From Candidatus Kaiserbacteria bacterium (GTDB lineage Bacteria > Patescibacteriota > Minisyncoccia > Phycocordibacterales > Phycocordibacteraceae): a DNA stretch of 64,000 nucleotides. Made by a program: the position numbers and the translations under genes. Shown piece by piece: positions 7,556 to 32,385 of the stretch (its first letter is position 1; each line of letters starts with the position of its first letter). The notes beneath the pieces were generated by a model. It worked only from the letters and a program-made list of their open reading frames with translations, was not told where the DNA came from and did no database searches. The DNA is taken from assembly GCA_963813065.1 (NCBI GenBank), contig CAWEXP010000008.1:9289-73288 (forward strand), in the 5' to 3' direction.

Positions 7556-8362
7556 ATGCAGAAAGCGCACGAGCAAATGCGGGAGCGAATAATTGAAACG
7601 CTTGCGGAAGGACCGCGGGAGAAGGTGGCCCTGCGCGATGAGGTCGTCGGCACCAAGCTCACGGTGCAGGGATTCTACAAAGCGCTTGCGAGATTGCGCG
7701 CCGAAGAGGTAGTGACGGTTCACAAAGGGTCCGTCAGTCTCGCGGTCGTGTGGATCCAACACCAAATGCGGCGCTTAGAGGAGATGGCGAGCGTGTATGG
7801 CATCCCGGCATATCGGAGCTATTTCGGCTCGCTGAAGAATGGCAAGAGGCTGTCTTTCACCTTTAAAAATTTGCGTGAGCTCGATCTCTTCTGGACCCAG
7901 GCGGCGCTTATCGCGATTGAGGGCGCGCCAAAGGACACGCCCGTTATTTCATTTCTCCCCCACGACTGGTTCGATGTCGTGCGCCCAAGCAGTTCCGAGA
8001 TTTGGTTCAAGATGCTAGGCAAACGGAATCCACACGTGAACGTCATCACGTACGCGACCCGAGAAGAAAAGAAATTGAGCGAGCACCCGGGTGTGACCAA
8101 GATCGAGAACATGTTTGGCGAGAATCCGCTCCAGCAAAAAGAATCGGACTATGTGAATATGATTGGTGATTTAATTTTCGAAGTGAAGCTCGATGAATCG
8201 GTTCTCTCGGGAATCAGAAACGCGATGCGCGGCGAGCCAGTCGACATAAACAAGCTAACCGCGAAGACGGGCGTCTTCAAACTCTCCATCAAGCGCGACC
8301 CCGCAAAAGCATTGGCTCTTAAAAAGAAAATCCAAAAGTATTTCTCCATTCGCCTCTTTTAA
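7556..8362 (+). CDS. winged-HTH regulator-like protein, paralog family A
   Basis: Paralog of 6300..7130 and 22138..22950 (shared LDLFW, PHDWF, KALALKKKIQKYF motifs). Divergently arranged with 6300..7130. Confidence 0.6.
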   Translation: MQKAHEQMRERIIETLAEGPREKVALRDEVVGTKLTVQGFYKALARLRAEEVVTVHKGSVSLAVVWIQHQMRRLEEMASVYGIPAYRSYFGSLKNGKRLSFTFKNLRELDLFWTQAALIAIEGAPKDTPVISFLPHDWFDVVRPSSSEIWFKMLGKRNPHVNVITYATREEKKLSEHPGVTKIENMFGENPLQQKESDYVNMIGDLIFEVKLDESVLSGIRNAMRGEPVDINKLTAKTGVFKLSIKRDPAKALALKKKIQKYFSIRLF

Positions 8363-17403: not shown

Positions 17404-17460
17404 AAAGAAACCGCGATTTTCGTCGGAACGAAAATCGCGGATGCAGTCCCATCATCTCTC

Positions 17461-17562
17461 TCACCTCAAATAAGGCAAGAGCATGATGCCGACTACAAGC
17501 AAAAGTCCTGCGGCAAGTAGGCAGATGACGCTCTTGAGAGCAATATCAATGCCGTCATTCAT
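17461..17562 (-). CDS. candidate 33-aa hydrophobic micropeptide
   Basis: Own translation: MNDGIDIALKSVICLLAAGLLLVVGIMLLPYLR. GGAGG sits 5 nt upstream of the ATG. Below the ORF-track size cutoff. Confidence 0.3.
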   Translation of the reverse strand: MNDGIDIALKSVICLLAAGLLLVVGIMLLPYLR

Positions 17563-17644
17563 AAAGACCTCCATCTCAATCAGCCAAGAATAATTTCCGG
17601 GCTGAACAGAGCGGAGAAGCCTAAGCTTCTCCTAGGGCACGTGG

Positions 17645-17965
17645 TCATTTCCTCCATTTTTTGACCTCGTCCATGTTACGTCTATTGAACTCGACCACCT
17701 CCGGACACCCATATACTTCAATATGGATGCTCAAAGCATGCTCGGTCATAGGTTCCGGCGGCCCATCGACTTGCTCTCGTACGCGCACAATGTGACTTTG
17801 CGCTGCGTCGATGGCGTCTTGTAGCGCCTCGTTGAGAGTGTCTCGTTCAGGTCCGGCCTCGTAGCAACTTTCGGAATCGCACTCTTCCCAAAGGCCGTTA
17901 CGAGTCACAAAGCCTTTAAATTGAAGTGCCATGCGTTTGCCCTCCTCAGGCGGTTTCGGTTGCAA
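17645..17965 (-). CDS. hypothetical protein (106 aa)
   Basis: Open frame in a clean intergenic context. No family recognised. Confidence 0.4.
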   Translation of the reverse strand: MQPKPPEEGKRMALQFKGFVTRNGLWEECDSESCYEAGPERDTLNEALQDAIDAAQSHIVRVREQVDGPPEPMTEHALSIHIEVYGCPEVVEFNRRNMDEVKKWRK

Positions 17966-18112
17966 AGATCATCTCGATGAGGATTCCATTCGCTTACGCG
18001 GATCGTTTCCTCAATGGAGGGGAGAAGTTGCTAACTTCCCCCAAGTGCGCGCCCTATGTTTATCCTGCCCAGCGCGGCAGTCTGATTTTTGGTTCTGTTG
18101 CCAAGCGGGTGT

Positions 18113-18850
18113 TCATCCCGCTCCGTTATCTCCAAGAGCTTCGTGTAGTTCCCGAGCTATGTGAGGCCAAGCTTCTTCCACGATTCCCGTGAGTAGTCCG
18201 ACACGTTCTAAGTCGTGTACCATTGTTTCAACAGGAATGCTGAAGTGAAGACGTCCTGACTTAGCGTAGTACCGAGGATGCGCTTCTGGGTCATGGCGAT
18301 CTAGGATGTTCCATCCCTTAGTGGGACGATAACAATCTAAGATTTCCACCGTGCATTGCGGGAACAGTTCCCCTAGCCATGCACGAAGACTCTCGCATCC
18401 CAATTCGGGATTACCGCGGAAGGGCTCATGATCTCCAAAGTGGGAAGTCCAGAGAGAAACGACCTTAGGCTCGCCGATCTTGTCGGCAACCATCCGAGCC
18501 ATTTTTTGAAAGATGGCCTTCGTTTCTTCCAGCCCGATATCATGGGTCGACTTTTCTCCAAAGAGAGAGGCCGAAATCCCCCGAGCAATCAACTGATCTA
18601 GTCCACCGAAACGAAACTGCTTGGCGGATAGAAACAGATCATTCTCGCAAGTGAGGTCGGGGAGCCAATAGGAAGCATCCACTGCCTCCGCTTCCATCTT
18701 GTCGCGATCATTGAAGATGTCTTGAGATCCACGAGGATAGGATTTCTCCTTTACCTCGTACCCAGCCATCTTCAATGTCTCGAGGATGCGCGGGACATAC
18801 GCCTCGAATACGTCATTGGAGCGATACGTGACGAGTACGGTTTTAGTCAT
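18113..18850 (-). CDS. hypothetical protein (245 aa)
   Basis: Long open frame, lower GC than its neighbours. No family recognised. Confidence 0.45.
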   Translation of the reverse strand: MTKTVLVTYRSNDVFEAYVPRILETLKMAGYEVKEKSYPRGSQDIFNDRDKMEAEAVDASYWLPDLTCENDLFLSAKQFRFGGLDQLIARGISASLFGEKSTHDIGLEETKAIFQKMARMVADKIGEPKVVSLWTSHFGDHEPFRGNPELGCESLRAWLGELFPQCTVEILDCYRPTKGWNILDRHDPEAHPRYYAKSGRLHFSIPVETMVHDLERVGLLTGIVEEAWPHIARELHEALGDNGAG

Positions 18851-18944
18851 ATGGTTGCCCTCCTGAGGCAGGCGCCGAAGCGCGATGGGATGAACTTGAT
18901 TTCTGCGACTAGTGTATCGGAATGTAGTATAAAGTCAAGAGGTA

Positions 18945-18973
18945 TTGACGACTAAACTAATGACCGATAATAT
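18945..18973 (+). promoter_or_regulatory. sigma70-like promoter TTGACG-17 nt-TAATAT upstream of 19000..19773
   Basis: Consensus-like hexamers with 17-nt spacing in an AT-rich intergenic region. Confidence 0.5.
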
Positions 18974-18999
18974 AGGTAGATACTAGCTATTTCTATACT

Positions 19000-19773
19000 A
19001 TGTCAATAATTATTGACCAAACGGATAGTAAGGAATTGATTGGGGGGCTAGAAACGTTAGGACTCAACGCCAAGGAGGCGCAGGTCTATCTGGCTCTCCT
19101 GCCCCGTCGGGACGTGGGGTCCTCGAAGATTGTGCTCGCGACCGGGCTCCATAAGCAGTTCGTCTACAACGCTATCGAGAAGCTGGAGCAGTTAGGACTT
19201 GTCAAGCACGTCATCCAGAACGGGCGCAAGAAATTTAGCGCCAATCCGCCCAGCCGTCTGCTCTCTATAGTTGAGGAAAAGCGCCTTGCGGCGCAGAATA
19301 TGGCCAAGCGCTTACAGGAACGATTCAGTGGTCAGCACGAACAGGACGTTGAGGTATTCCAAGGGGATTCAGCCGTCCTCGCCCACCACTACGACATGTT
19401 GGAGCGTATCGAGCAGGACCAAGAGGCACAGGTTATATGCGGCCCGACCGAGACTTTTCTTAAGATTATCGGCCCGGACGAAAAGGACGTGTTCGAGGAG
19501 ACGCGCGTGGCTAAGGGGCTACACATCCGATATCTAGGGATGGAATCTATGAGGGAACGACTCATCGAGACGAAAAAATGGCGCAAGCTTTTTGATTACC
19601 GCATATTGCCCGGCGGCCAGTCTACCGGCCAACTCGATATTGATATATGGCCTAACAACGTGACCTATAACCTCTTCGGCGACCCCCTTCTCTCCATCAC
19701 AATTACGAACAAAGCAATGACCGACGGATACCGAGAATTCTTCGAATCGCTCTGGGCGCTCTCCAAGCCATAA
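19000..19773 (+). CDS. TrmB-like wHTH transcriptional regulator, paralog family B
   Basis: N-terminal TrmB-type HTH (AKEAQVYLALLPRRDVGSSKIVLATGLHKQFVYNAIEKLEQLGLV). C-terminus shares YREFFESLW with 29853..30590 and 47695..48588. Confidence 0.7.
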   Translation: MSIIIDQTDSKELIGGLETLGLNAKEAQVYLALLPRRDVGSSKIVLATGLHKQFVYNAIEKLEQLGLVKHVIQNGRKKFSANPPSRLLSIVEEKRLAAQNMAKRLQERFSGQHEQDVEVFQGDSAVLAHHYDMLERIEQDQEAQVICGPTETFLKIIGPDEKDVFEETRVAKGLHIRYLGMESMRERLIETKKWRKLFDYRILPGGQSTGQLDIDIWPNNVTYNLFGDPLLSITITNKAMTDGYREFFESLWALSKP

Positions 19774-20036
19774 AGGACATTTTTAAATAGTTATCCCCAC
19801 CTGTGTCCTTTACACTGTCCTTGAAAGAACTATGATCAATCTCAGACGGAGGTTCTTTCTTGAACATTGGTTCTTCATCAGTTTGCGCTTTTGCGGCTTC
19901 TCTCTACGTCCGCGACGATATCGCGATTACCTGAGGAGACGAATCTGCTTCGTAAGCGCTGTTCTGTTCTTTGAGAAAGACCGCCCACACCTATGTGTCA
20001 GGGGCCCCATCATTAAGCCCCTCTCCTTTTGCCTCT

Positions 20037-20062
20037 GACCGCCCTGGGCGGTCTTTTTGTTT
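20037..20062 (+). terminator. Rho-independent terminator
   Basis: gaccgccc-tgg-gcggtc stem followed by TTTTTGTTT. Confidence 0.5.
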
Positions 20063-20071
20063 CCCGTGCAA

Positions 20072-20123
20072 CAAATCGAGGTTAAACCTTGAGAACTTGC
20101 CTTTAAGGTTTAACCTCGATTTG
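20072..20123. repeat. perfect 19-bp inverted repeat (caaatcgaggttaaacctt / aaggtttaacctcgatttg) with a 14-nt spacer, 6 nt past the cca stop
   Basis: Read directly from the sequence. Confidence 0.6.
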
Positions 20124-20128
20124 GCGCG

Positions 20129-21643
20129 CTAGCAGACGTGATGCTTCTCCATTATCTTCTGCACCTCCTCGTCTTCCTTCTCTTCCCTCTTTTGCTTGCC
20201 CGATTCACCAAGCCCCTTAAGCTCATCGTCTGGAAGAGTGAGCAATTCGATCGTTTTTGTATCCAAATAGTCTTCTGTATTGCGCGCAGGGTCTTCGAGC
20301 ACATCCTCGAGGAGCGCATTGAGGGTCCAGCCAATCCTGGGGCCAGGTTCCACGTGGAACTTCTCCATAATCCGCGTACCGTCCGTCTTAAGCATGGCTA
20401 CCGATATCGGGTCCCTCAGGGCTTGGTCAATCATCGCCATATACTTCCGCAAGCGAAACGGCTGTTCCTTGGGCCGGCCGGTGCCTATCCGGTCACAAAT
20501 CCGCAACTTCAAGAGGTCATCAATGTTCTCCCTACCCACGTTTGTAATCAGGCGCCGGACTGCTGAGAGTGTGATTTCATCGGGATCTGAAAAAAACATG
20601 TGCCAACGCACCAAATTGCTCACTTTGTCTATTGTTGCACGTGAAAATTTCAAATCCTCTAAAGCCTTCTTTGTTACACGTGCACCAACGACGTCATGAC
20701 CATGGAATGTCCACTCTTTCTTCTCATCCGACCAACGGCGGGTCTCCGGCTTAGAGACATCGTGGAAGAGGGCCGCGAGGCGAATATCGAAGTCCCAGCC
20801 CTTGTCGGCCGCATGTTGCATGGAGCGCATGAGGTGGCCAAAGACGTCGTAGCTATGGGCCTGATTCTGCTCGACGCCAATGCCGCGAACCAGGTCCGGC
20901 GAGATGTTCTCGAGGATACCGAGCTGTTGGGAGAGCACGAGGCCCATCATCGGCTTGTCCGACTTAAGAATCCGCACCAACTCATCGCGCACGCGCTCAC
21001 GAGAAACATGGCCTAAATGCTTTGCATTCTCGCTAATCGCCGCGGCAGTATCGCCATCGATACCGAAATCGAGTTCGGCAACCAGACGCACCGCGCGGAG
21101 CATGCGCAGAGCGTCCTCGTTGAACCGCTCCGAGGCGTTACCCACCGCACGCACCAATTTGTCCTTTATGTCCTTTTGACCCTCGTAGAGGTCAATAAGA
21201 TGTCCTTTACCCGTCCCTAAGACTGGGCCAGGCAGGGACTCATCAAGCGCGAGGGCGTTGATGGTGAAGTCGCGGCGCGCGAGGTCCTCTTCGAGCGACA
21301 CGCCGAAGTGTACTTCGTCGGGGCGACGCTTGTCGCTGTAGCCACTCTCGGCGCGGTAGGGAGTTACCTCAATAATTTTCAACGTCTCGTCGATCGAATC
21401 GGTTTTGACCCCGACGGTGCCGTACTCATTCTCGTAGAAAGAGTCAGGAAATACGCCCTGAATCTGCTCGGGGGTCGCGTTGGTGGTGATGTCCCAATCC
21501 TTCGGCTTCCGGCCCATGATCAGGTCGCGGACACAACCGCCGACCAGATACGCCTCGTATCCGGTCGCGCGCAGAGCGCCGCTTACCTTGGAGACTTCGT
21601 CCGGAATAGGGAAGTGCACTTGTGGTGAGTCTGGTCGAACCAT
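20129..21643 (-). CDS. cca: CCA-adding enzyme / tRNA nucleotidyltransferase with HD domain
   Basis: GGCVRDLIMGRKPKDWDITT poly(A) polymerase head motif plus an HD domain. Confidence 0.9.
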   Translation of the reverse strand: MVRPDSPQVHFPIPDEVSKVSGALRATGYEAYLVGGCVRDLIMGRKPKDWDITTNATPEQIQGVFPDSFYENEYGTVGVKTDSIDETLKIIEVTPYRAESGYSDKRRPDEVHFGVSLEEDLARRDFTINALALDESLPGPVLGTGKGHLIDLYEGQKDIKDKLVRAVGNASERFNEDALRMLRAVRLVAELDFGIDGDTAAAISENAKHLGHVSRERVRDELVRILKSDKPMMGLVLSQQLGILENISPDLVRGIGVEQNQAHSYDVFGHLMRSMQHAADKGWDFDIRLAALFHDVSKPETRRWSDEKKEWTFHGHDVVGARVTKKALEDLKFSRATIDKVSNLVRWHMFFSDPDEITLSAVRRLITNVGRENIDDLLKLRICDRIGTGRPKEQPFRLRKYMAMIDQALRDPISVAMLKTDGTRIMEKFHVEPGPRIGWTLNALLEDVLEDPARNTEDYLDTKTIELLTLPDDELKGLGESGKQKREEKEDEEVQKIMEKHHVC

Positions 21644-21694
21644 AGCGCGATAGTACCACGTGAACCCGCTATTTCGTGGTATTGTCCCTCTATC

Positions 21695-21766
21695 GCCCCG
21701 ATGGTGAAATGGATATCACAACAGCCTTCGAAGCTGTTGTTCCAGGTTCGAATCCTGGTCGGGGCA
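21695..21766 (+). tRNA. tRNA-Arg (anticodon TCG)
   Basis: Manual cloverleaf: acceptor GCCCCGA/TCGGGGC, D-arm GTGA-AATGGATA-TCAC, anticodon loop CTTCGAA, T-arm CCAGG-TTCGAAT-CCTGG. Confidence 0.8.
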
Positions 21767-21805
21767 CTACTTCGCTCAGAGTACTGAGCTTCGCAGTGCA
21801 AGCAC
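21761..21805. repeat. attL-like repeat overlapping the last 6 nt of tRNA-Arg
   Basis: ggggcactacttcgctc is identical to 27503..27519. The following ~28 nt are about 80% identical. Confidence 0.6.
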
Positions 21806-21828
21806 AAAAAAAGGCGGCCGTAGCCGCC
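21805..21828 (-). terminator. Rho-independent terminator for the minus-strand small membrane protein gene
   Basis: ggcggc-cgta-gccgcc stem with a U-tract on the minus strand. Confidence 0.5.
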
Positions 21829-21837
21829 TAGCTAAAG

Positions 21838-22095
21838 TTAGAAACAAGGTAACCAAGCACCGCAGTGATCCATCATTGTATTGAAGATTGTCGCAAGCAG
21901 TAAGCCCAGCGCTATGGCTCCAAAATTGCATACGATACCGGTGAGCGCGTATTTCTCTCTGTCTGTCACTAGTTTCTCCTTGAATTCATCCAACCAACCC
22001 TCGGGCTCGTTCTTAATCATTTCTATCTCCCTACTGTCTAAGTGACAATTTACTAAAAAATAAATTAGCGCACTACTTTTAATGCATATTTTCAT
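21838..22095 (-). CDS. small membrane protein
   Basis: AT-rich frame with a C-terminal TM helix (GIVCNFGAIALGLLLATIF). Terminator downstream. Start may be the internal Met at 22017. Confidence 0.4.
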   Translation of the reverse strand: MKICIKSSALIYFLVNCHLDSREIEMIKNEPEGWLDEFKEKLVTDREKYALTGIVCNFGAIALGLLLATIFNTMMDHCGAWLPCF

Positions 22096-22137
22096 AACTT
22101 TTGCACTTTTTGTTCATTTTATGCTATTCTGGCCCGA

Positions 22138-22950
22138 GTGATTTTCACCACACAAGAGACACTTGAAGACCGCATCATCCGGCTGGTGCTTGAAGAGAAG
22201 GCAAGCATCAAGGCGCTCCACCAACGCCTCGCGGGAGAGGAGAAGCTCTCCCTCCGCGCGGTCTACAAGGCCGTCGACAAGCTGATTGGCGCCGGCGTGC
22301 TCATTAAAGCGGGTCAGCGGGTGGTGCTGAGCGCAGAGTGGGCGGGAAGAGTCGTCGAGGGGTTACAGACTTCTCCTTTGTCGGTGCTCGGCGAGGGCGA
22401 ACGAGCGGTCTACACCTTCGCGAGCATGGAACATCTCGACGCCTTCTGGAAAACGGTAGTTCTACCGCTCGAGGCGGCGGCCGAGGAGAAAGAAATCTTC
22501 TTCTACAATCCCCACGACTTCTGGGCGTATCTCCCCGAGCGGCGGGAGAGCGAGGATGCCTATTACCGACATTTTGCAGCAACCGGGAGGCATGGTTTCT
22601 TGGTTGTTGGCGGTGAGTCGCTGGCAGATCGAGAGTTTAAGCGCACATACCAGAACGAAAACTTCCAAATTGATACGCGAAATGTGAGTTCTCTCGCACG
22701 CCGAGACCATCTCACCATCCTCGGGCCACTGGTTATAACCGTCCGCCTGCCTAAAAAGCTTGCGGCCCATATCGACGATCTCTACGCATCGGGGAAGGCG
22801 ATGTCGGCGCTCCTGCCGAGCGTGCTCGAGGCTTGCCGGGCACCCGGGACACTACGCTTTGTCCTTGAGAACCATCCGGCGAAAGCGAAGAGAATTAAAC
22901 AGCTATTGGCTAAGAATTTCTATTTCAAACAGCACGAGGGCATGTTATAG
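22138..22950 (+). CDS. winged-HTH regulator-like protein, paralog family A
   Basis: Paralog of 6300..7130 and 7556..8362 (LDAFW, PHDFW, KAKRIKQLLAKNFYF). Confidence 0.6.
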   Translation: MIFTTQETLEDRIIRLVLEEKASIKALHQRLAGEEKLSLRAVYKAVDKLIGAGVLIKAGQRVVLSAEWAGRVVEGLQTSPLSVLGEGERAVYTFASMEHLDAFWKTVVLPLEAAAEEKEIFFYNPHDFWAYLPERRESEDAYYRHFAATGRHGFLVVGGESLADREFKRTYQNENFQIDTRNVSSLARRDHLTILGPLVITVRLPKKLAAHIDDLYASGKAMSALLPSVLEACRAPGTLRFVLENHPAKAKRIKQLLAKNFYFKQHEGML

Positions 22951-22961
22951 TCTCGAACGAA

Positions 22962-23032
22962 GCGGATATGGTTTAGTGGTAGAACGCGTCCTTGCCAAGG
23001 ACGAGACGGGAGTTCGATTCTCCCTATCCGCA
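22962..23032 (+). tRNA. tRNA-Gly (anticodon GCC)
   Basis: Acceptor GCGGATA/TATCCGC, anticodon loop TTGCCAA, T-arm GGGAG-TTCGATT-CTCCC. Confidence 0.8.
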
Positions 23033-23101
23033 CAGCAGTCAGGGCCCCAGTTTTCGTCTGCGAGGCCTCGAAAATAGTTCGCAACCGCGAGGGGTATTTT
23101 G

Positions 23102-23404
23102 CTATGCCCGATGCGTTTTGCGGTGCTCGATTAGCACCTCCGCCGGAGACTTGCCGTCGAGGATGCGGTGCGGGAAGCAGTTCCAGGCATCCGTTGCGGT
23201 TTCCACTGCGTTACTCATGTTGATAGGGTCGCCATTGTCGAACATCATGATGACCTGTTGCATATCGTCGGTCTCTTCCTCCTCATAAATAGCTTCGAGC
23301 ACATCGGCAAGCTCGAAGTCGCTCCCGGTCGACTTCGAGAAATCCGCTATTTCGACCTCAAGCTCGGCGCGACGGGCAAGCAATTCCTCAATGGTTTCGG
23401 GCAT
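23102..23404 (-). CDS. hypothetical acidic protein (100 aa)
   Basis: Open frame inside the island. No family recognised. Confidence 0.4.
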   Translation of the reverse strand: MPETIEELLARRAELEVEIADFSKSTGSDFELADVLEAIYEEEETDDMQQVIMMFDNGDPINMSNAVETATDAWNCFPHRILDGKSPAEVLIEHRKTHRA

Positions 23405-23427
23405 TGGGGATATAATAGCGCACTCGA

Positions 23428-23670
23428 TTAAGACGCGTAAAAGTGCTCGCGCAATTCGTCCTCTGGTATGTAGCGGGAGGCCTGCTTGAATATCGCCACC
23501 ACCGCGCCAGTCTTGAGCTCCTTGTGGTTCGAGATGAGGAGCGTCTGCTTCTGCCCAGCTCGCTCGCGCACGAGGATGATGTGGCTTCCGCGTTGGCGCT
23601 CCACTTCAAATCCAAACTGCGCGAGCATCTTAACGACTTCTGCTCCAGAGAGACGCTTCGGCTTAGGCAT
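23428..23670 (-). CDS. hicA: HicA-family mRNA interferase toxin
   Basis: SGAEVVKMLAQFGFEVERQRGSHIIL pattern typical of HicA (YcfA-like). Confidence 0.7.
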   Translation of the reverse strand: MPKPKRLSGAEVVKMLAQFGFEVERQRGSHIILVRERAGQKQTLLISNHKELKTGAVVAIFKQASRYIPEDELREHFYAS

Positions 23671-23890
23671 GCGCGAGCGCAGGGAGCTCGAAGTTCACGA
23701 GCACCGAAGGGTCTGCGGAAAAACCGAGGTCGGAGAGGGCCTCCCCTTCCATAAAGAGGCTGACTGCTTCTTTAATATTCGCCGTAAGCTCATCAAGTGT
23801 ATCGCCTTGGGTGACGATAGGCACAGAGACGCCCTCAGCGACATAGCCGCCGTCGCTCTCGGAGACCTGGAATTGCAGGATGCCTTTCAT
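23663..23890 (-). CDS. hicB: HicB-family antitoxin (UPF0150-type N-terminal domain)
   Basis: YVAEGVSVPIVTQGDTLDELTANIKEAVSLFME matches the HicB N-terminal fold consensus. Overlaps hicA by 8 nt. Confidence 0.65.
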   Translation of the reverse strand: MKGILQFQVSESDGGYVAEGVSVPIVTQGDTLDELTANIKEAVSLFMEGEALSDLGFSADPSVLVNFELPALAHA

Positions 23891-23923
23891 ATCAGCAGTA
23901 TACCATATTTGCTCATTTTCAGC

Positions 23924-25336
23924 CTAATCCGCGAGCGTGATTTGCCGGTCATTCAATATCAACCGATCTCGCAAGTGCTCCAGCAGCTCCCGCTTCTCCT
24001 CTCGGCTGCCATTCTTCAGCAGATACTTAGCGTATTTGCGTATGTCCATCTCCTTGGCCTCGATGGTGTCCATAGTGCCATCCACCTCCGCTCGCAGCTT
24101 GTTGTACCGGGACACCTCGCGCTCGATGAGGTGCCGCGCCCCGATCTCGTCGAGGGAGATGCGGTCGATAAGAGTGGCGAGCTGCTCAAGCACGCGCTCC
24201 TCCCGCAGATACGGGTTCTTGCACTGGGTATCCTTGGCGCGAGAGCAGGAGTAATAGATGTACGATACCGGCTCTCCGGTACTGAGCAGTTTAGATTTTT
24301 CTTGCGCTGTGATGCCTGAGCCGCAGTACCCGCAGAGGAGGAGCTTGGTGAAGTTCCATTCCTTGAATCTGGTCTTTGGGCGATTCTCCTCTGCGATCTT
24401 TTCTTGTACCGCTTGGAATAATTCCTGAGTGATGAGCGGCGTATGCTTGCCGGTATACCAATTGCTCGAGCCTCGTGGATATTCGAAGACGCCACAGTAG
24501 AAGGGATTCTTGAGCATTTTGTATAGGGTAGATAGGTTCATGCTCTTGCCGATTCGGGAGGCGAAGTGCACATCGCGCTTGAGCCACCCGTGTACCTTGC
24601 GGCCGCTCCAACGCTCGACACCAACTTTCTCAAACACTTGCTTGATGATAGGGGAGCGGACTGGATCAACGAGTACCTCACAGCGATGATCCTTTCGACC
24701 ATCATTCAAGTATCCCGTTGGCGCGATGCCAGGCCAGAGTCCCATTTCGACTCGCGCTCTGAGACCGCGCTTCACGTTGACGCGCTTGTTGTCGTTCTCG
24801 AGCTTGGCCTGCGAGCCGAGAATCATGAGCAAGAACTTCTCATTCGGGTTATTGCCGAACCGCTGGCCGTACGTCCTAATGTCCACCAAGTGCTTGCTGT
24901 CCATCAGGTCCACGATGCGGCCGAGGTCTCCGGCGTTCCTGCTAATGCGGTCTGGTGCCCAGGTTAAGATGCCGTTGAACTTCCCGGCCTTCAGCTCCTC
25001 CACGATCTCGTTGAACACCGGCCGCGCCCCGGCTTCCTTGGCCGAGTGCGATTCGCGCTTCATTTCGACAATCTCCAATTTCTCCTTCTTCGCCAAGGCG
25101 AGCATCTCCTTCACCTGGCTCTCGATGCTCAATACCTGCTGTTCCTCACTCTCTGTGCTCTTGCGAGCGTAGAGGCAATACCGCACCGTCTGCACCTCCA
25201 CCAAGGGAGGAGCCGCCCCGAAACCGCCCTGAATCATTGCTGTTTCCATTGTTATTGCCGTTATTGCTAACGGTCTAAGGGATGACGCAACCCCTCGCGG
25301 GTGTCCAGCGAGGGGTTGTTGGTATCTTTTAATCAA
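23924..25336 (-). CDS. large serine recombinase (resolvase N-terminal domain + recombinase domain + zinc ribbon)
   Basis: [20 protein letters not shown] catalytic-Ser motif, recombinase domain and C-terminal Cys cluster. The true start is probably an internal Met near 25249. Confidence 0.85.
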
Positions 25337-25360
25337 GTTCGGTAGGTAATGCTATGATGT

Positions 25361-26791
25361 ATGCATCAAGTACCGCTCGCCATGGCTTCAGATCACTTCA
25401 GCCAAGTAGTCGATAAAATTTGGCTGGTGCCGCTAGTGCGTGAGATCGTTAACCCGATTATTCTGCTACTCGTCGCAGGCGCATTCGTGATGTTTCTTTG
25501 GGGCGTTTTTAATTTCATCAGGAATGCTGGCGATGCGACGCAACGAGAGCAGGGGCGTAATAGCATCGTCTGGGGCATAGCCGGTCTCGTAGTGATGTTT
25601 GGCGCGTACGGCATCATTAATATTGCACTAACTACTTTCAATCTCCCAACTATTCATAAAATCTCCACCGTTGCGACGAATCAGATTGGAGGTTCAAGTG
25701 GCAGTGCCTGTACTGATGCCGGAGCAACAACTGGTACTGGTGGTACAGCAACCGATATCTCAACGATGGTCGCGGGAAGTGCAAAAGTCGCCGCTAATAC
25801 TGGTGCAAATTCCTGCGCCGCTCTTGCTGCTACTGGGGGCGATACGTACAGAGAGATCTCGCTCAATCAGTGCTCCTGCACTACTACTCAAGGTGTCGTT
25901 TGTTGTGGCGAGTTTCCGGCCAGCCAACCAGACGTCATTACAATAGATCCCACTCTAACTCCCGATACAAGGATTAGCGACCTGATAACACTCACACTCC
26001 CGAACGGGACAACCCAAACTTATAACCCACAGCCTTCCTGTTCAGGCGATGCTGTGCTTGCGGCAAAGACCTTTGCGGACGGCATCACCGCAATCAAACA
26101 GTTGATGACCACTTGCCCCCATGAAGTTGGCGCAAAATTCATCACGCAAACTACCGTACCCGAGCACTGGTTCGACTATCAAGAATTCGGTGCTACGGGC
26201 GGGTACATGAGTACTTCGGTAATTGTGGCTTCCGAAAAAGCCCAGTCGGAAAATAATGCGAACTACAATGCTCCGGATGGTTTGCTGTATCCAGGTATCG
26301 GATTGTTGCATCTCGTGCACACGCACCCCACAGCTATGGCGATTCCTTACCTCCCGCCCTCCGGTACGGATATAGAATCGTGTCTCGCTACAGACTCTGC
26401 AGCAAAAAGTATTTCGATGGACTATGAAGGCACCTTTGAATATGACGTCGTTGCTCCCAATGGATTGTATTCTTTTAATTGTGACGGAACGAATAAGTAC
26501 GTGGAGCCGTTCACGCCAAGCGCGCAGCCTTGGACCACGGACGACGAGAATAAATTTCTGTCTACAGAGAAAAATATCGCCTCGCAGATAGACCAAGATT
26601 TCCCTGTTGATGAGATACTCAAGTTCCAAGATATTTATGCTGGTCCGATCGACACGGCAGGCAACCTTGCTCCCTCATCCGCCACCTTGGCGCAGAAACA
26701 ATCTGCTGTAGACGGACTTCTCGGTCTTTATAGTTCGATTGGCATTTCGGTTACGCTCACGCCGTGGGGCAGCTCGATACCAGAGTTCTAG
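25361..26791 (+). CDS. membrane-anchored, Cys-rich, Thr/Gly-rich secreted protein (476 aa)
   Basis: Two N-terminal TM helices, then low-complexity T/G/A-rich and Cys-containing (CSCTTTQGVVCCGEF) extracellular region. Low GC. Confidence 0.5.
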   Translation: MHQVPLAMASDHFSQVVDKIWLVPLVREIVNPIILLLVAGAFVMFLWGVFNFIRNAGDATQREQGRNSIVWGIAGLVVMFGAYGIINIALTTFNLPTIHKISTVATNQIGGSSGSACTDAGATTGTGGTATDISTMVAGSAKVAANTGANSCAALAATGGDTYREISLNQCSCTTTQGVVCCGEFPASQPDVITIDPTLTPDTRISDLITLTLPNGTTQTYNPQPSCSGDAVLAAKTFADGITAIKQLMTTCPHEVGAKFITQTTVPEHWFDYQEFGATGGYMSTSVIVASEKAQSENNANYNAPDGLLYPGIGLLHLVHTHPTAMAIPYLPPSGTDIESCLATDSAAKSISMDYEGTFEYDVVAPNGLYSFNCDGTNKYVEPFTPSAQPWTTDDENKFLSTEKNIASQIDQDFPVDEILKFQDIYAGPIDTAGNLAPSSATLAQKQSAVDGLLGLYSSIGISVTLTPWGSSIPEF

Positions 26792-26845
26792 TTGACAACT
26801 AGCCATATAGCCTATATAAAGGATTTTGCTCAGATGGAGGTACCA

Positions 26846-27037
26846 ATGCTCTTTACGCGACTGATTTATACGTTCGCATTTTGTCTGCTTTTAGTGGGCT
26901 GCGCAAATCAGGAATTCGGACATTGTCCCGGCCCGAACGAAGTGTATACTCATGGATCTTCGTCCGTGGATTCAAGAGCCCGCTTCGAGTGGCTCAGAAA
27001 GTGCACCACCGAACCCGCCGCTAATCATTCAAGATAG
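26846..27037 (+). CDS. small lipoprotein
   Basis: GGAGG sits 6 nt before ATG 26846. Signal peptide with lipobox LLLVGC. Terminator overlaps the stop codon. Confidence 0.5.
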   Translation: MLFTRLIYTFAFCLLLVGCANQEFGHCPGPNEVYTHGSSSVDSRARFEWLRKCTTEPAANHSR

Positions 27038-27048
27038 CGGCGGGTTTT
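27013..27048 (+). terminator. Rho-independent terminator
   Basis: cccgccgcta...tagcggcggg stem followed by TTTT. Confidence 0.55.
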
Positions 27049-27502
27049 ATGTTCAAAATATCGGCATTTGTAGGCATTTCGGAGCCTGCCACATGAGTGT
27101 CTAATGTGTCTAGCGTTCCAAAATGCGACATGCCCAAAACGCTCTTTTGACGTTGCATTCTATATCACTTTGACCCCCGACCCCCTGTCAGATTTGTAAG
27201 GTTGCAGTCCGCCTTCCGAACACAAACCGAACAGTCAAAATAAGCCTTTTCGTGTTCGGTTTGTTCGCTTTTCCAGTCCGCAACCGCGAGGGATGCACTG
27301 GAAACAGGCGAGACACGCTCTAAACGTTAGAATACCCTTATTCTGCTTGCTGGAATCGCTAAAACGAGACAGTGTCCGATATACCCGACCCGTGTCTCAT
27401 TTGTCTCATTTTGTACCCGACCGCGAGGCCTCGATCCGGGTGAGCGACTACTCGCCAAACGGCCCTTGTGTTGCCTCACCTGGGCCAGTTCAGTACAGTG
27501 AG

Positions 27503-27548
27503 GGGGCACTACTTCGCTCGGATTACCGAGCTACGCAGTGCACGGCAC
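27503..27548. repeat. attR-like repeat
   Basis: See 21761..21805. Preceded by ccagttcagtacagtgaggg, which resembles a degraded tRNA T-arm and acceptor. Confidence 0.6.
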
Positions 27549-27667
27549 CAAGTTTGTCAGCGGGTCAAATAGTTGGGGATATCGCGGGGGATACTGGGGA
27601 TAAAGGACATGTCTTTGTTGAGCTCGGGTATAAAATAACCAGCAAATGAGCCGTTTATCTAAAAGCC

Positions 27668-28063
27668 GTGGACCTCTCCTCTAAGACGCGGAAAGAGGTC
27701 GGTGCTCTGGGAGAAGCCATTGCCGCCGAGTATCTTAAACGGCGCGGATTCTCGATAGAAGACAGAAATATCGCGCGGAAGACGGGCGAGCTCGACCTCA
27801 TCGCGCGCGAAGGAAGCGTTTTACATTTCGTAGAGGTGAAGACGGTGTTGGCGGATGAATTTCCTGATGAGAAATATGCGACCGATGAGTATGATCCTTC
27901 GCTCAACTTGCACGAATCGAAAATACGGAAGGTGGCGCGGACCGCCGAGTGGTACGCGATGGAGAAAGGTTGGGAAGGGGATTGGCAGGTGGATGGGTGC
28001 CTGGTCTGGCTCCGCAGACGCGACGGCCTCGCGCGGGTCCGCTACCTACCGCAGATTGTTTAA
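27668..28063 (+). CDS. yraN: YraN-family (UPF0102) endonuclease
   Basis: GALGEAIAAEYLKRRGFSIEDRNIARKTGELDLIAREGSVLHFVEVKT matches the UPF0102 consensus. Confidence 0.75.
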   Translation: MDLSSKTRKEVGALGEAIAAEYLKRRGFSIEDRNIARKTGELDLIAREGSVLHFVEVKTVLADEFPDEKYATDEYDPSLNLHESKIRKVARTAEWYAMEKGWEGDWQVDGCLVWLRRRDGLARVRYLPQIV

Positions 28064-28112
28064 TGGTACAGTGGCGAAGACCCTTCTTCGCCAAAGGCTA
28101 CGAAGGGCACGG

Positions 28113-28183
28113 CGGGGCGTTGTGTAACGGTAGCACGCGACCTTTGGGAGGTTGTAGTCCGAGTTCGAATCTCGGCGCCCCGA
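28113..28183 (+). tRNA. tRNA-Pro (anticodon TGG)
   Basis: Acceptor CGGGGCG/CGCCCCG, anticodon loop TTTGGGA, T-arm CCGAG-TTCGAAT-CTCGG. Ends 1 nt before the pirin start codon. Confidence 0.75.
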
Positions 28184-28184
28184 C

Positions 28185-28892
28185 ATGAAGACCGTCATCC
28201 ATCGAGCAGACGAGCGCGGGGTAGGGGAGCATGGCTGGCTCTCGACCCGCTATAGCTTCAGCTTCGCAGATTGGTATGAGCCGACCCGGATGGGCTTCGG
28301 CACTCTCCGCGTCATCAACGACGATACAATCGCACCCGCGTCAGGCTTCCCCATGCATGCGCATCAGGATATGGAAATCATCACCATCGTGATGCGCGGG
28401 GCAGTGACGCACAAAGACAGTTTGGAAAATGTGGGCACGGTCCCCGCCGGCGACATCCAGGTGATGAGCGCGGGCACTGGCATTGTACACTCCGAGTACA
28501 ACGCCTCCGCGAGTGCGCCGCTCGCGCTCTTCCAGATCTGGATCGAGCCGAACAAGCATGGTGTCCGCCCACGCTACGCGCAGAAGTCATTTACCGATGC
28601 AAAGAGGAGCGATTTCCAACTACTCGCATCGCCCACGGGAGCGAATGGGAGTTTAGGCATACACCAAGACGCCTACATCTGCCTGGCGCGCGTGGACAGA
28701 GACCATCCGCTCAACTTTGAATTACAGAACAAGCGCCACGGCGTGTATCTGTTTGTCATCAGCGGCTCGATAGAAATAGCGGGGGAGACGCTCGACGCAC
28801 GCGACGCCATCGGCATCACCGAAGCCGACAAAATCCGCATCGAATCGCCACAATCTGCCGAGCTCCTCATCATAGAGGTGCCGATGAGCTAA
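28185..28892 (+). CDS. pirin-family cupin protein
   Basis: GFGTLRVINDDTIAPASGFPMHAHQDMEIITIVMRG matches the pirin N-terminal cupin motif. Confidence 0.85.
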   Translation: MKTVIHRADERGVGEHGWLSTRYSFSFADWYEPTRMGFGTLRVINDDTIAPASGFPMHAHQDMEIITIVMRGAVTHKDSLENVGTVPAGDIQVMSAGTGIVHSEYNASASAPLALFQIWIEPNKHGVRPRYAQKSFTDAKRSDFQLLASPTGANGSLGIHQDAYICLARVDRDHPLNFELQNKRHGVYLFVISGSIEIAGETLDARDAIGITEADKIRIESPQSAELLIIEVPMS

Positions 28893-28929
28893 AGAAAACC
28901 CCGGCCGTAGCCGGGGCAAGAGATGATGT

Positions 28930-29205
28930 CTAGAGTTTTAGCTTGCGCACCAGAAATGCGAGAATTTGTTCGCCGCGCCAGCGCCACATTCCTGCCAGAA
29001 AGCACCCGAGCAAGAACGCGCTACTGCTCCAAAAGACAAATTGACGGACAATCGCTGACCCGTCATAGACCAATACTTCGGCCACTATGAACGCCAACAG
29101 GAACAATTGGAACTCTTGTGGATGTTTGCCGACAAACCAAAATACCAGCATGTATCCATACACGAAAGCCGTGAGGCAAGCCGCAAATAGAATAATCAGA
29201 CCCAT
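28930..29205 (-). CDS. small membrane protein (91 aa)
   Basis: AAGGAG sits 7 nt upstream of the ATG. Two or three TM helices. Minus-strand terminator downstream. Confidence 0.45.
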   Translation of the reverse strand: MGLIILFAACLTAFVYGYMLVFWFVGKHPQEFQLFLLAFIVAEVLVYDGSAIVRQFVFWSSSAFLLGCFLAGMWRWRGEQILAFLVRKLKL

Positions 29206-29224
29206 TTACATCTCCTTTCTTGAC

Positions 29225-29419
29225 TTAGCCGAACCATGCAATCACAAGAGAGAGGAAGACCAGGCACACCGCAACCCAACCGAGTCCGCAGATGCACCGT
29301 ATGACAGCTTTCGCGAACCACGACTTTGGTTCGTCTTCAACAAAAATACAGAGCATGCCGGCCAGAAAGACGAGTCCTTCACCGGACAAGAGTAAACTTT
29401 GTGAGAGCGTGTATTCCAC
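29225..29419 (-). CDS. small membrane protein (64 aa)
   Basis: GTG start with AAGGAG 5 nt upstream. Two TM helices. Confidence 0.4.
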   Translation of the reverse strand: MEYTLSQSLLLSGEGLVFLAGMLCIFVEDEPKSWFAKAVIRCICGLGWVAVCLVFLSLVIAWFG

Positions 29420-29468
29420 ATGGTCTCCTTTTCAGTTTTTAGAGTGGGTCGCGATGCAAGCCGGGATA

Positions 29469-29696
29469 CTAGTCGTCGCGAAAGCGATATTTCTTTTCGC
29501 GTTCCTTTTCACGTTCCCATTTGTAGCCACCGCATTTCCATGCGGACACTGCCAGAAGAAGAAACGCTGGTATCCCAATTAACCACGAGTCCATATACAC
29601 GGCGAGCATCAAGATTAATGAACAGGCCCAAACCAGCGCCCGCCATCGCTTTTCCGTCATGTTTTCCTCCGTCAATGAGCCGGGCACCATGCCCAA
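29469..29696 (-). CDS. small membrane protein (75 aa)
   Basis: Hydrophobic core followed by a basic, Glu/Lys-rich tail. Low-GC tandem with the two previous genes. Confidence 0.35.
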   Translation of the reverse strand: MGMVPGSLTEENMTEKRWRALVWACSLILMLAVYMDSWLIGIPAFLLLAVSAWKCGGYKWEREKEREKKYRFRDD

Positions 29697-29852
29697 CTTC
29701 CGATAAGAAGAATACAGAACAATGTGTGAATTTGTCAGTACTGGCCTGATTCTATAAATTTCTTGGCCGAAATGTGACGTATATGCTTGTTCGTATAGGT
29801 GATAAATGTCAGAAATATTGACAAAATAGCTGGTTTAGAATAAGCTGTTTGC

Positions 29853-30590
29853 GTGAATGCAACGATATTAGAATCGCTCGGGATGGGCGAAAAGGCGGCA
29901 AAAATATATCTCGCGGGGCTCGCGCTCGGGACGACGAGCGTACAAGAGCTCGCGCGGAAGTCGGGCTTGAAGCGCCCGACGGTGTATCTGCACATCGACG
30001 AGCTGGTGAAGCAGGGACTCTTTGAGCTCGCACCAATCAACAAGAAAAATTATTACCGCGCGACCGATCCCACCACGATCGAGGAGCGCATGCAGAAAAA
30101 CTTGGCGGCACTCCAGCGCGAAATGCCCAAGCTCGAAGCAATGCGCGGCGATCTGCACGGGAAGCCCTCGGTGCGCATTCTCGAAGGCGAAGAAGGAGTG
30201 CGGCAGGTCTATCGCGAGATTGCGAAGGCGCACAGTTGGCGCATCTGGTCCAACGTCGGCGACGCGTACGGCCAGTTCTACCAGATCTATATGGAACTCT
30301 GCGAGGCCGTGCGCGAGCAGGGCACCAGCGTGCGCGAAATTATTGCGGACACCAAGGAATGCCGCCACCAGGCGCGGCTCGTTGCGAAAATTGCGGGGCC
30401 TACCTATACCGCGCGCACGGCGACCGTCGAAGGGCTCGAGAACGATACGATTATTTATGGCAACACGGTTGCGCTCTTCCGGCTCTCGGGATTGAATATG
30501 TTTGTGGTTCGCATTGAGGACAAAACTATTGCTGATTCACTCCGAGCTATTTTCGAGATGGCATGGAAGACTGCGCGATCACTCACATAA
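29853..30590 (+). CDS. TrmB-like wHTH transcriptional regulator, paralog family B
   Basis: GEKAAKIYLAGLALGTTSVQELARKSGLKRPTVYLHIDELVKQGL HTH. Shares its C-terminal domain with 19000..19773 and 47695..48588. Confidence 0.7.
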   Translation: MNATILESLGMGEKAAKIYLAGLALGTTSVQELARKSGLKRPTVYLHIDELVKQGLFELAPINKKNYYRATDPTTIEERMQKNLAALQREMPKLEAMRGDLHGKPSVRILEGEEGVRQVYREIAKAHSWRIWSNVGDAYGQFYQIYMELCEAVREQGTSVREIIADTKECRHQARLVAKIAGPTYTARTATVEGLENDTIIYGNTVALFRLSGLNMFVVRIEDKTIADSLRAIFEMAWKTARSLT

Positions 30591-32311: not shown

Positions 32312-32385
32312 GCGGAGTTAGTTTAATGGTAGAACTTCAGTTTTCCAAACTGATAGCGGGAGTTCGATTCTCCCACTCCGCACCA
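32312..32385 (+). tRNA. tRNA-Gly (anticodon TCC), CCA encoded
   Basis: Acceptor GCGGAGT/ACTCCGC, anticodon loop TTTCCAA, T-arm GGGAG-TTCGATT-CTCCC, 3' CCA. Confidence 0.8.

Follow-up and report, generated by a model that had tools for sequence, protein, structure and literature searches.

Large serine recombinases (LSRs) of phages, such as the A118/LI integrase, SPbeta SprA, Bxb1 and phiC31, combine resolvase, recombinase and zinc-ribbon domains, and their attL and attR sites share few bases, with no long duplication and with differing attP and attB arms. Most characterised serine integrases interrupt a protein-coding gene (PMC5704250, PMC10654092). The repeats that flank serine-recombinase elements are very short, and the genes that these elements interrupt are as a rule dispensable; insertion at tRNA genes typifies tyrosine integrases (PMC5704250, PMC10654092, PMC4383910). 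Islander-type islands of tyrosine integrases lie directly 3' of a functional tRNA gene, form hot spots with varying cargo and have a far end that resembles a tRNA 3' half (PMC4383910). In SCCmec and its staphylococcal and enterococcal relatives, the LSRs called Ccr insert small, non-self-transmissible cassettes with interchangeable cargo at the 3' end of one housekeeping gene, which stays active, and the cassettes accrete in tandem. Here, we describe a recombinase-bearing locus in a 64-kb stretch of a Candidatus Kaiserbacteria genome (contig CAWEXP010000008.1; hereafter the window, to whose positions all coordinates refer). An initial annotation had placed an island of about 5.8 kb, bounded by a long direct repeat, at tRNA-Arg(TCG). 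We arrive at a different map and give it a probability of about 85%: an LSR cassette at the 3' end of tRNA-Gly(GCC), together with two copies of a tRNA-flanking palindrome, explains the locus. Comparison of sequences shows that the insertion is polymorphic and its ends are conserved, gives the junction sequences, and establishes both the target shared with other genomes and the motif family.

tRNA genes were called with ARAGORN and Rfam, and protein domains with Pfam; further profile searches used NCBIfam, phrog, relatives in the PDB and PADLOC. Relatives of the chromosomal backbone were gathered through the CCA-adding enzyme gene beside tRNA-Arg, which gave 66 related loci from GTDB genomes, and the genomic surroundings of nine recombinase homologues were inspected. 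Labels such as L001 to L153 denote the related loci and contigs compared. The best matches of the CCA enzyme were 78% identical and named Candidatus Kaiserbacteria or Paceibacterota. An exact-sequence look-up of the window's recombinase and CCA-enzyme open reading frames (ORFs) returned no match, probably because these mechanically called frames start too early.

The predicted cassette and its target site

The gene order CCA enzyme, tRNA-Arg(TCG), tRNA-Gly(GCC), YraN, tRNA-Pro recurs in more than 35 related loci, and tRNA-Gly(GCC) is therefore a resident gene. The CCA enzyme and YraN are 327 nt apart in L001 and up to 6181 nt apart in other relatives. Compared with the minimal arrangement, the window carries two separate insert blocks, X (21806-22961) and Y (23034 to ~27509). 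Judged from sequence comparison, the mobile unit comprises 23034-27509, inserted exactly after the ...GCAC end of tRNA-Gly(GCC); comparison of element ends thus gives a size of ~4.48 kb in place of the earlier 5.8 kb. The features on which this map is built are:

21695-21767, plus strand: tRNA-Arg(TCG) (ARAGORN; Rfam 69.5 bits), a backbone gene and no insertion site in this genome
22962-23033, plus strand: tRNA-Gly(GCC) (ARAGORN; Rfam 73.3 bits), the resident, intact gene bearing attB
23030-23033: GCAC core of attL, tRNA positions 71-74 (junction table)
23034-23093, plus strand: P' arm, 87-88% nucleotide identity to L069-L073 (aligned attL set)
23060-23071: box1 GCGAGGCCTCGA, in the P' arm
23076-23092: box2 AGTTCGCAACCGCGAGG, in the P' arm
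23102-23404, minus strand: 100-aa acidic protein (ORF), cargo travelling with HicAB
23428-23670, minus strand: HicA toxin (PF07927, E=1.5e-15, 57.4 bits against a cut-off of 27)
23663-23890, minus strand: HicB-like antitoxin (PF15919, 17.2 bits, a weak match below the cut-off of 27)
23924-25249, minus strand: LSR of 441 aa with Resolvase, Recombinase and Zn_ribbon_recom domains
25288-25318, upstream of the recombinase gene: hairpin with 14-bp arms containing the box2 core CCGCGAGGG (inverted repeats)
25361-26791, plus strand: 476-aa membrane-anchored protein with an N-terminal T4SS-pilin-like domain (PF18895, 1.8e-7), cargo
26834-27037, plus strand: small lipoprotein (ORF open from 26792; lipobox LLVGC), cargo
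27040-27505, plus strand: conserved non-coding end B, 85% identical to L067 over 393 nt
27485-27505, within end B: P arm CCAGTTCAGTACAGTGAGGGG
27506-27509: GCAC core of attR (junction table)
32312-32385: tRNA-Gly(TCC) (ARAGORN/Rfam), unoccupied in the window

LSRs that are 64-94% identical to that of the window occur in nine other genomes with the same geometry at tRNA-Gly(GCC) or tRNA-Gly(TCC), the 3' end of the LSR gene facing the tRNA gene's 3' end in the occupied sites. At the occupied tRNA-Gly(GCC) sites (L069, L073), the recombinase gene lies ~105 nt from the tRNA. Occupied tRNA-Gly(TCC) sites were found in L067, L142, L143, L145, L152 and L153; the distance is comparable in L142, L145, L152 and L153, while cargo genes stand between recombinase and tRNA in L067 and L143. 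Occupied sites read ...GCAC followed by AGCRGTYAG.., and in closer relatives the P' arm is conserved over 60 nt that hold the boxes GCGAGGCCTCGA and AGTYCGCAACCGCGAGG. By its P' arm, the closest element is that of L153 (recombinase 90% identical), which is at tRNA-Gly(TCC) and not at tRNA-Gly(GCC) as in the window; one specificity therefore covers both genes. The tRNA-Gly(GCC) of the window is 97% identical to the copy in L152. Across ten genomes and two tRNA-Gly genes, the insertion point is identical to the nucleotide.

Nucleotide-level matches between the window and the recombinase loci fell in three places: tRNA-Gly together with 60 nt, the recombinase gene together with 80 nt upstream of it and, in L067 only, 27118-27509 at 85%, the homology stopping exactly at 27509. 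The right end reads ...CAGTACAGTGAGGGG-GCAC in the window and, without a change, in L067; the versions in L073 and L152 are similar. The sequence ccagttcagtacagtgaggg is present, and what had been reported as the remnant of a degenerate tRNA is the element's conserved P arm. In L067, the right end is followed by ACTCTAGTGCTAGTTCAAGTGACCGAGGTGC, the native tRNA-Gly(TCC) trailer, which, bar the first two bases (AC versus CA), is also the sequence after the window's unoccupied tRNA-Gly(TCC) (at 32385). In the window and L073, the right end is followed by the palindromic motif treated below.

Relatives with empty sites do exist, and the empty sites are at tRNA-Gly(GCC): in L014, L079, L095, L096 and L123 the gene ends in ...GCAC and continues directly into TACTTCGCTC...GCAGTGCAC.GCAC and YraN. 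The stretch from attR to YraN in the window aligns co-linearly with the stretch from tRNA-Gly to YraN in L014 and L022. An attP-type junction, P-GCAC-P', is present in L151 and L152; in L152 it lies beside a truncated recombinase remnant, which indicates tandem accretion. GCAC is the only sequence common to attL, attR, the five empty attB sites and the two attP-type junctions. The puzzle of a serine recombinase with long att repeats, raised by the first description of the locus, thus vanishes because the true junctions share GCAC only, which is what this class of enzyme leads one to expect. For the window, the predicted empty attB junction reads ...CCCTATCCGCAC|TACTTCGCTCGGATTACC and the predicted circular attP junction ...CAGTACAGTGAGGGGGCAC|AGCAGTCAGGGCCCCAG. 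One candidate rule, that the P arm tracks the T-loop of the host tRNA (AGTTC versus AGTCC at -19), fits the window, L067 and L073 and was rejected, as it fails in L152.

In the mechanism that we propose, the LSR would recombine the element site P-GCAC-P' with the chromosomal site formed by the T-arm/acceptor end of tRNA-Gly, GCAC and the trailer. The crossover, which in this enzyme class has a 2-bp stagger, would take place inside GCAC, at tRNA positions 71-74, and yield attL as tRNA-Gly-GCAC-P' and attR as P-GCAC-trailer. As CCA is not encoded and the sequence as far as C74 is kept in full, tRNA-Gly remains intact. The mechanism would be that of an ordinary LSR; the target, a tRNA-Gly 3' end, is unusual.

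The recombinase carries the resolvase domain (PF00239, E=7e-21, profile positions 3-143 of 145), the recombinase domain (PF07508, 9e-13) and the zinc ribbon (PF13408, 1e-8), the latter two above their cut-offs. An active-site motif with the serine nucleophile (YxRxSTxxQ type) is present and the protein starts METAMIQ... More than 8000 homologues in metagenomes are typically 437-444 aa long, because of which we place the start at 25249 and the length at 441 aa; the assignment as a large serine recombinase stood, the length of 470 aa did not. The protein matches the phrog_95 integrase (6.5e-66), and its relatives of solved structure are SPbeta SprA (9dxd, E=1e-13) and the A118 integrase (4kis). 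Its best likeness in NCBIfam is CcrB, at 101.6 bits against a cut-off of 900, followed by CcrA (50.9 against 700) and CcrC (36.3 against 900). Identity to entries of phage and plasmid collections is 28% or less, and among viral contigs there are only relatives at 52-61%, whose low-GC contexts are unrelated. PADLOC gave no defence match. The protein is a member of a Patescibacteria-specific LSR clade, and it probably catalyses the integration. No tyrosine integrase domain (PF00589) was found by Pfam among the proteins of 21838-27037; in relatives, the nearest Phage_integrase genes are XerC/D-like backbone genes several kilobases away. A literature search found nothing on tRNA-Gly-targeting serine recombinases in this phylum.

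Mobility is further indicated by unequal divergence. The recombinase is 82-92% identical (77-83% at the nucleotide level) to that of relatives whose CCA enzyme is 70-72% identical (~68% at the nucleotide level), and end B is 85% identical to that of L067 against ~68% for backbone genes. None of the ~40 GTDB relatives that span the site carries this recombinase clade, and the cargo was different in every genome compared. In the window it comprises HicAB, the acidic protein, the pilin-like surface protein and the lipoprotein. L151 has the same HicB-HicA-acidic module at 81% nucleotide identity; L069 carries CobT/AAA_5 genes and a retroelement that has bAvd and reverse transcriptase; L142 carries methylases and a zeta toxin; and L152 and L153 carry N_methyl pilin-like genes. 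In the islands of L069 to L071, a diversity-generating retroelement (DGR) lies beside CobT/AAA_5 (L069 6288-7698), and these cassettes therefore move DGRs between genomes. In this cassette, the ends and the recombinase are conserved and the cargo is swappable.

The recombinase might instead be a resident invertase or resolvase, at a locus that varies by ordinary recombination and gene loss. Such a reading would accommodate the tRNA genes that are inverted singly or in pairs among relatives, the widely varying contents of the gap and the JGI annotation of homologues as 'DNA invertase Pin-like'. We consider it very improbable, given full integrase-type recombinase and zinc-ribbon C-terminal domains, an insertion point that does not shift by a nucleotide, conservation at both ends, the attP-type junctions, and a recombinase and non-coding ends far more similar than the backbone.

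A site-specifically integrated element with a serine recombinase, HicAB, a surface protein and a lipoprotein, as originally described, is present. The small membrane protein, the winged-helix (wHTH) gene and tRNA-Gly, which had been counted in, are variable backbone and not cargo of the recombinase. Within the HicB-HicA pair, HicA is secure, while HicB matches its family weakly; an 8-nt overlap with hicA and the gene order fit HicAB. HicA is 91%, the HicB-like protein 85% and the acidic protein 93% identical in L151, where the latter lies beside HicA and HicB. The acidic protein had no family match in Pfam, phrog, NCBIfam and PADLOC searches. The 476-aa protein was confirmed, with its T4SS_pilin domain at the N-terminus; it scores 28 bits, below the cut-off, against NF045849 (pilin-like) and was not found in the other elements compared. 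The lipoprotein, which has no family matches, likely starts at the ATG at 26834. The genes are not low in GC as had been stated: GC is 0.48-0.58 inside the interval and 0.50-0.60 outside, and only 21800-22199 dips to 0.43.

End B is modestly structured (fold z-score ~ -2.6). A coding role was rejected, as its mismatches to L067 show no codon periodicity (22/17/11 by codon phase). It carries a hairpin (27216-27267), box2 (27275-27291) and box1 (27423-27434), and so holds direct copies of both P'-arm boxes; the box2 core recurs in the hairpin at 25288-25318, which lies in a stretch whose conservation with L067, L069 and L073 reaches 25327-25330 and is a candidate operator. The repeated boxes suggest protein-binding sites beyond a minimal attP. 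The hairpin previously noted near the right boundary is real, although it has a 2-nt bulge, and L067 keeps only the 8-bp core CCGAACAC/GTGTTCGG. This ~56-nt hairpin element (CGAACAGAAACCGAACAC...GTGTTCGCTTTGTTCG), found once in the end B of the window, occurs twice in the 7.9-kb island of L073 (3963-4018 and 7642-7697).

The direct repeat and a tRNA-flanking palindrome

The repeat on which the larger island had been based does exist. Its copies at 21761-21800 and 27503-27542 match at 36/40 positions, start with 17 perfect nucleotides (GGGGCACTACTTCGCTC) and form the longest direct repeat in the region; allowing one indel, the similarity continues to ...GCAC at 21805 and 27548. Across the window, a degenerate pattern of the 40 nt hits these two places and no other, and shuffles gave an expectation of 0. 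Two inner-stem differences between the copies, from A:T to G:C, are compensatory, a first hint of a structured element rather than an att scar. Only 4-7 nt of the repeat belong to the tRNA; the remainder is a trailer palindrome found at many tRNAs, with the following copies in the window:

21764-21805, plus strand: left palindrome copy (covariance model 49.4 bits; fold -15.6 kcal/mol)
27506-27548, plus strand: right palindrome copy (covariance model 51.6 bits)

The left copy consists of an outer stem (GCACTAC/GCAGTGC), a TTC/TTC internal loop, an inner hairpin (GCTCAG-AGTA-CTGAGC) and the tail AAGCAC. The right copy is syntenic with L014 and L022, where the motif stands directly after tRNA-Gly. 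On this evidence the left copy is the trailer of tRNA-Arg itself, and the right copy the trailer of tRNA-Gly(GCC), displaced by 4.5 kb through the insertion. The GGG shared just upstream of both is a coincidence, being the acceptor end of tRNA-Arg in one case and the P arm in the other.

A pattern search gave 70 matches to the palindrome in 68 metagenome contigs, so that the motif is widespread downstream of tRNA genes, a finding that the initial annotation had itself named as one that would refute its island. The consensus is GCACTRC-TTC-variable stem-TWC-GCAGTGC with the tail A.GCAC. The outer stem has 7 bp (GCACTRC/GCAGTGC), and its first four bases belong to the end of the tRNA itself. There is an internal loop (TTC/TWC), and the inner stem measures 2 bp in the short form, which is the common one, and 4-10 bp in the long forms. 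About 80% of the 70 matches directly abut the end of a tRNA gene. Forty are at the 3' ends of tRNAs for Arg (CCG, CCT, GCG), Gly (GCC, TCC), Ile, Leu, Lys, Met, Phe and Val, and ~15 are mirrored at the 5' ends of Thr or Asp tRNAs. The inner segments fold end to end into hairpins in 21 of 23 distinct long cases, against 1.3% of shuffles. Over five inner pairs, double changes fill 36 cells, against 12.2±3 in shuffles, none of 500 of which reached as high; the outer stem is invariant in the alignment. A covariance model, run on the window and on 1.19 Mb of loci not chosen for the motif, found only the two copies in the window and, as strong matches outside it, only L014 and the attR of L073.

The mirrored 5' copies are in L084, L089, L092, L103, L105, L108, L115, L117, L118, L122, L126 and L128, and the same arm of the palindrome (GCACTRCTTCGC) faces the tRNA at both the 3' and the mirrored 5' placements. 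This constant orientation argues for DNA-level recognition or an insertion preference over a strand-specific RNA signal. A terminator scan did not call the palindrome, which is followed by A.GCAC and no T-run. Rfam has no family for the palindrome or for end B; in 20000-30000, at E<=1, it returned only three tRNAs and a weak RF04354 match that lies below the gathering score, overlies tRNA-Gly and was taken as chance. REP elements, or BIMEs, are short dispersed imperfect palindromes with a GTAG-type head, linked to Y1 transposases. The palindrome resembles them in its conserved outer bases, its variable inner stem and its patchy presence among orthologous sites. It differs in being welded to tRNA termini whose terminal GC(AC) it shares, in its fixed orientation and in having no GTAG-type head or linked Y1 transposase: a tblastn search with the Y1 protein of L067 gave no match in the window or the 68 motif-bearing contigs. 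A REP/RAYT origin has no local support. A literature search on the tRNA-flanking palindrome found nothing, and it is apparently a separate, undescribed conserved element.

These data also bear on the single 5.8-kb island (21768-27502) at the 3' end of tRNA-Arg, for which the 46-nt repeat would be a duplicated att core. The repeat is indeed unique in the window and begins in the last bases of tRNA-Arg, and a sequence like a tRNA 3' half precedes the right copy. However, the repeat belongs to a motif family at many tRNAs, so that it is no att duplication, and the supposed remnant is conserved element sequence. tRNA-Gly(GCC), a backbone gene in the relatives, has no second copy past the right repeat; L003, L010 and L016 have block X but no recombinase; the interval has no tyrosine integrase; and the nine-genome comparison maps the ends of the element to 23034 and 27509. 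We find a tRNA-Arg island barely credible.

Several points weigh against the cassette at tRNA-Gly(GCC) with two independent palindromes. A directionality (excision) factor was not identified. Dyad symmetry of P and P' around GCAC was not established, the pair CTGGGCC/GGCCCCAG being off-centre. End B, at ~470 nt and with its repeated boxes, exceeds a minimal serine-integrase attP in length and elaboration, and the nearest genomes with empty sites are other species (CCA enzyme 69-78% identical). The exact crossover dinucleotide within GCAC is something that we infer, as are, from sequence, a circular intermediate, excision and current activity. Finally, among the genomes sampled, tRNA-Arg(TCG) carries the motif in this one only, and the two copies share their inner-stem length and 13/16 inner positions, slightly more than unrelated members do.

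The last two observations would be accounted for if the cassette is at tRNA-Gly, but the left motif was copied from the tRNA-Gly trailer to tRNA-Arg, either by register-shifted recombinase events at GCAC pseudo-sites or by template switching at GGGGCAC/GCAC microhomology. In L067 and L069, a terminator hairpin directly follows the GCAC of tRNA-Arg, and what sets the window apart from them is a 38-nt block with GCAC on both sides; GGGGCAC precedes both copies. This block could reflect mobility of the motif itself or copying from the neighbouring site. Against copying, members of the family, bounded in the same way by GCAC...A.GCAC and with no recombinase nearby, occur at more than 15 tRNA species, and therefore no island-specific process is needed. 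Copies within a contig are alike elsewhere too (L075, L103), and those of the window differ by four substitutions and one indel, including a compensatory pair, and hence are not recent. Copying from tRNA-Gly to tRNA-Arg thus strikes us as unlikely, and we retain the palindrome as each tRNA's own trailer.

Short inserts of 38-75 nt part a tRNA (Gly or Leu) from its palindrome in L141 (190-270), L080 (5605-5640) and L120 (7295-7332), each ending with a degenerate copy of a tRNA 3' half and GCAC. Integrative elements may have left them as scars, or they may be miniature derivatives of such elements.

The surrounding backbone

The remaining features around the cassette are:

21812-21829, minus strand: intrinsic-terminator-like hairpin with T-run (terminator scan), serving the small membrane-protein gene
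21838-22095, minus strand: 85-aa small membrane protein (ORF), in variable backbone block X, outside the recombinase element
22138-22950, plus strand: 270-aa winged-helix-like (wHTH) protein, block X
27596-27610, plus strand: conserved box GGGGATAAAGGACAT / GGGGATAAAGGACA (alignment), backbone flank
27668-28063, plus strand: YraN/UPF0102 gene (PF02021), backbone flank (27596-28063)
28113-28184: tRNA-Pro (ARAGORN/Rfam)

tRNA-Arg adjoins the CCA-enzyme gene in all relatives. The hairpins after tRNA-Arg in L067 and L069 are counterparts of the terminator at 21812-21829, and both loci have small genes at the position of the 85-aa gene, whose product had no family match in Pfam and NCBIfam profile searches. 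Homologues of the 270-aa wHTH protein (tblastn, 47-61% identity) sit between tRNA-Arg and tRNA-Gly in L003, L010, L016, L024, L067, L069 and L152; the window holds distant paralogues at 6306-7040 and 7571-8353.

The box GGGGATAAAGGACA (27596-27610), preceded by GTGGATAA-like sequence, is invariant ~60 nt upstream of YraN in all relatives examined (L001, L014, L016, L020, L022) and may be a promoter or operator. The tRNA-Arg/tRNA-Gly pair is inverted as a unit in L008 (9794-9980) relative to L001 (9789-9964), with the flanks keeping their orientation, and lone tRNA genes, including tRNA-Pro, are inverted in other relatives (inversions also occur in L010, L011, L024 and L049). The ATG of a pirin ORF directly follows the last base of tRNA-Pro (28184/28185 in the window), so that tRNA 3' processing would yield a leaderless mRNA; an Exo_endo_phos ORF likewise starts right after a tRNA end in L142 (13855) and L143 (11718).

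A second insertion (17405-20128) lies on the far side of the CCA-enzyme gene, where the gap is 2.7 kb against 310 nt in L001. Its 246-aa gene and TrmB-type wHTH gene (19000-19773) are 86% identical in nucleotides and 96% in amino acids to L067 (5367-7098), where the module lies just outside the recombinase island, beside an IS200-like Y1 transposase; the module was transferred separately. This module A (18049-19777) had been considered as part of the island, since it adjoins end B in L067. It was rejected, as in L067 it lies beyond attR, past the native tRNA-Gly(TCC) trailer and terminator.

Relation to described systems and meaning

In its domains and in attL and attR sites that share few bases, the cassette resembles phage LSR systems. 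Unlike these, its recombinase is at most 28% identical to collection entries, its target is a tRNA 3' end left intact, it lacks phage, replication or transfer genes, and it has ~470 nt of non-coding sequence with repeated boxes on the P side. With SCCmec and its relatives it shares the small cassette with interchangeable cargo, the insertion at the 3' end of a gene that stays active, tandem accretion (here L152) and the likeness to CcrB, although it is not a Ccr by score, has a single recombinase gene, targets tRNA-Gly and not rlmH, and belongs to a host in the phylum Patescibacteria. Like Islander-type islands, it lies directly 3' of a functional tRNA gene, at a hot spot with varying cargo, and its far end, the P arm, is a loose T-arm/acceptor mimic; unlike them, it has no tyrosine integrase in the interval and duplicates no tRNA fragment beyond the shared GCAC.

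The mycobacterial phiRv1 serine integrase targets the REP13E12 repeat. As with phiRv1, the target here stands beside a repeated chromosomal element and there are several possible sites per genome, but the palindrome is not required: tRNA-Gly(TCC) sites are used without it, and the common denominator is the tRNA-Gly 3' end.

A second LSR clade was seen in L024 (1947-3535), with a protein of 516 aa, 32% identical and with all three domains. Its gene has the 3' end at that of an inverted tRNA-Arg(TCG), with a SocA/Panacea antitoxin among the cargo; targeting of tRNA 3' ends may thus extend to other LSR clades in these genomes. More tentatively, and with considerable doubt, we raise the possibility of an SCC-like cassette system of Patescibacteria, in which LSR clades specialised on tRNA 3' ends shuttle cargo and the palindrome represents an undescribed element class. 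Candidate members may be the tRNA-Gly GCC/TCC clade described here and the clade at tRNA-Arg(TCG) in L024; their cargo may be defence, toxin-antitoxin, DGR and surface-protein genes moved between species. The palindrome GCACTRC-TTC-stem-TWC-GCAGTGC-A.GCAC could be mobile or have a part in tRNA processing; tRNA gene ends are marked by it, and both the inversions of single tRNA genes and the short insert scars at these sites may stem from it.

The corrected map defines the mobile unit, its target and its ends to the nucleotide. It shows small recombinase cassettes moving among Kaiserbacteria-like species, whose genomes are tiny and in which few mobile elements have been documented; the cassettes always land at tRNA-Gly 3' ends, with toxin-antitoxin pairs, surface proteins, diversity-generating retroelements and methylases as cargo. 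The natural attP/attB pairs of a serine integrase specific to Patescibacteria would be a practical starting point for genetic tools in a phylum that is not yet engineerable.

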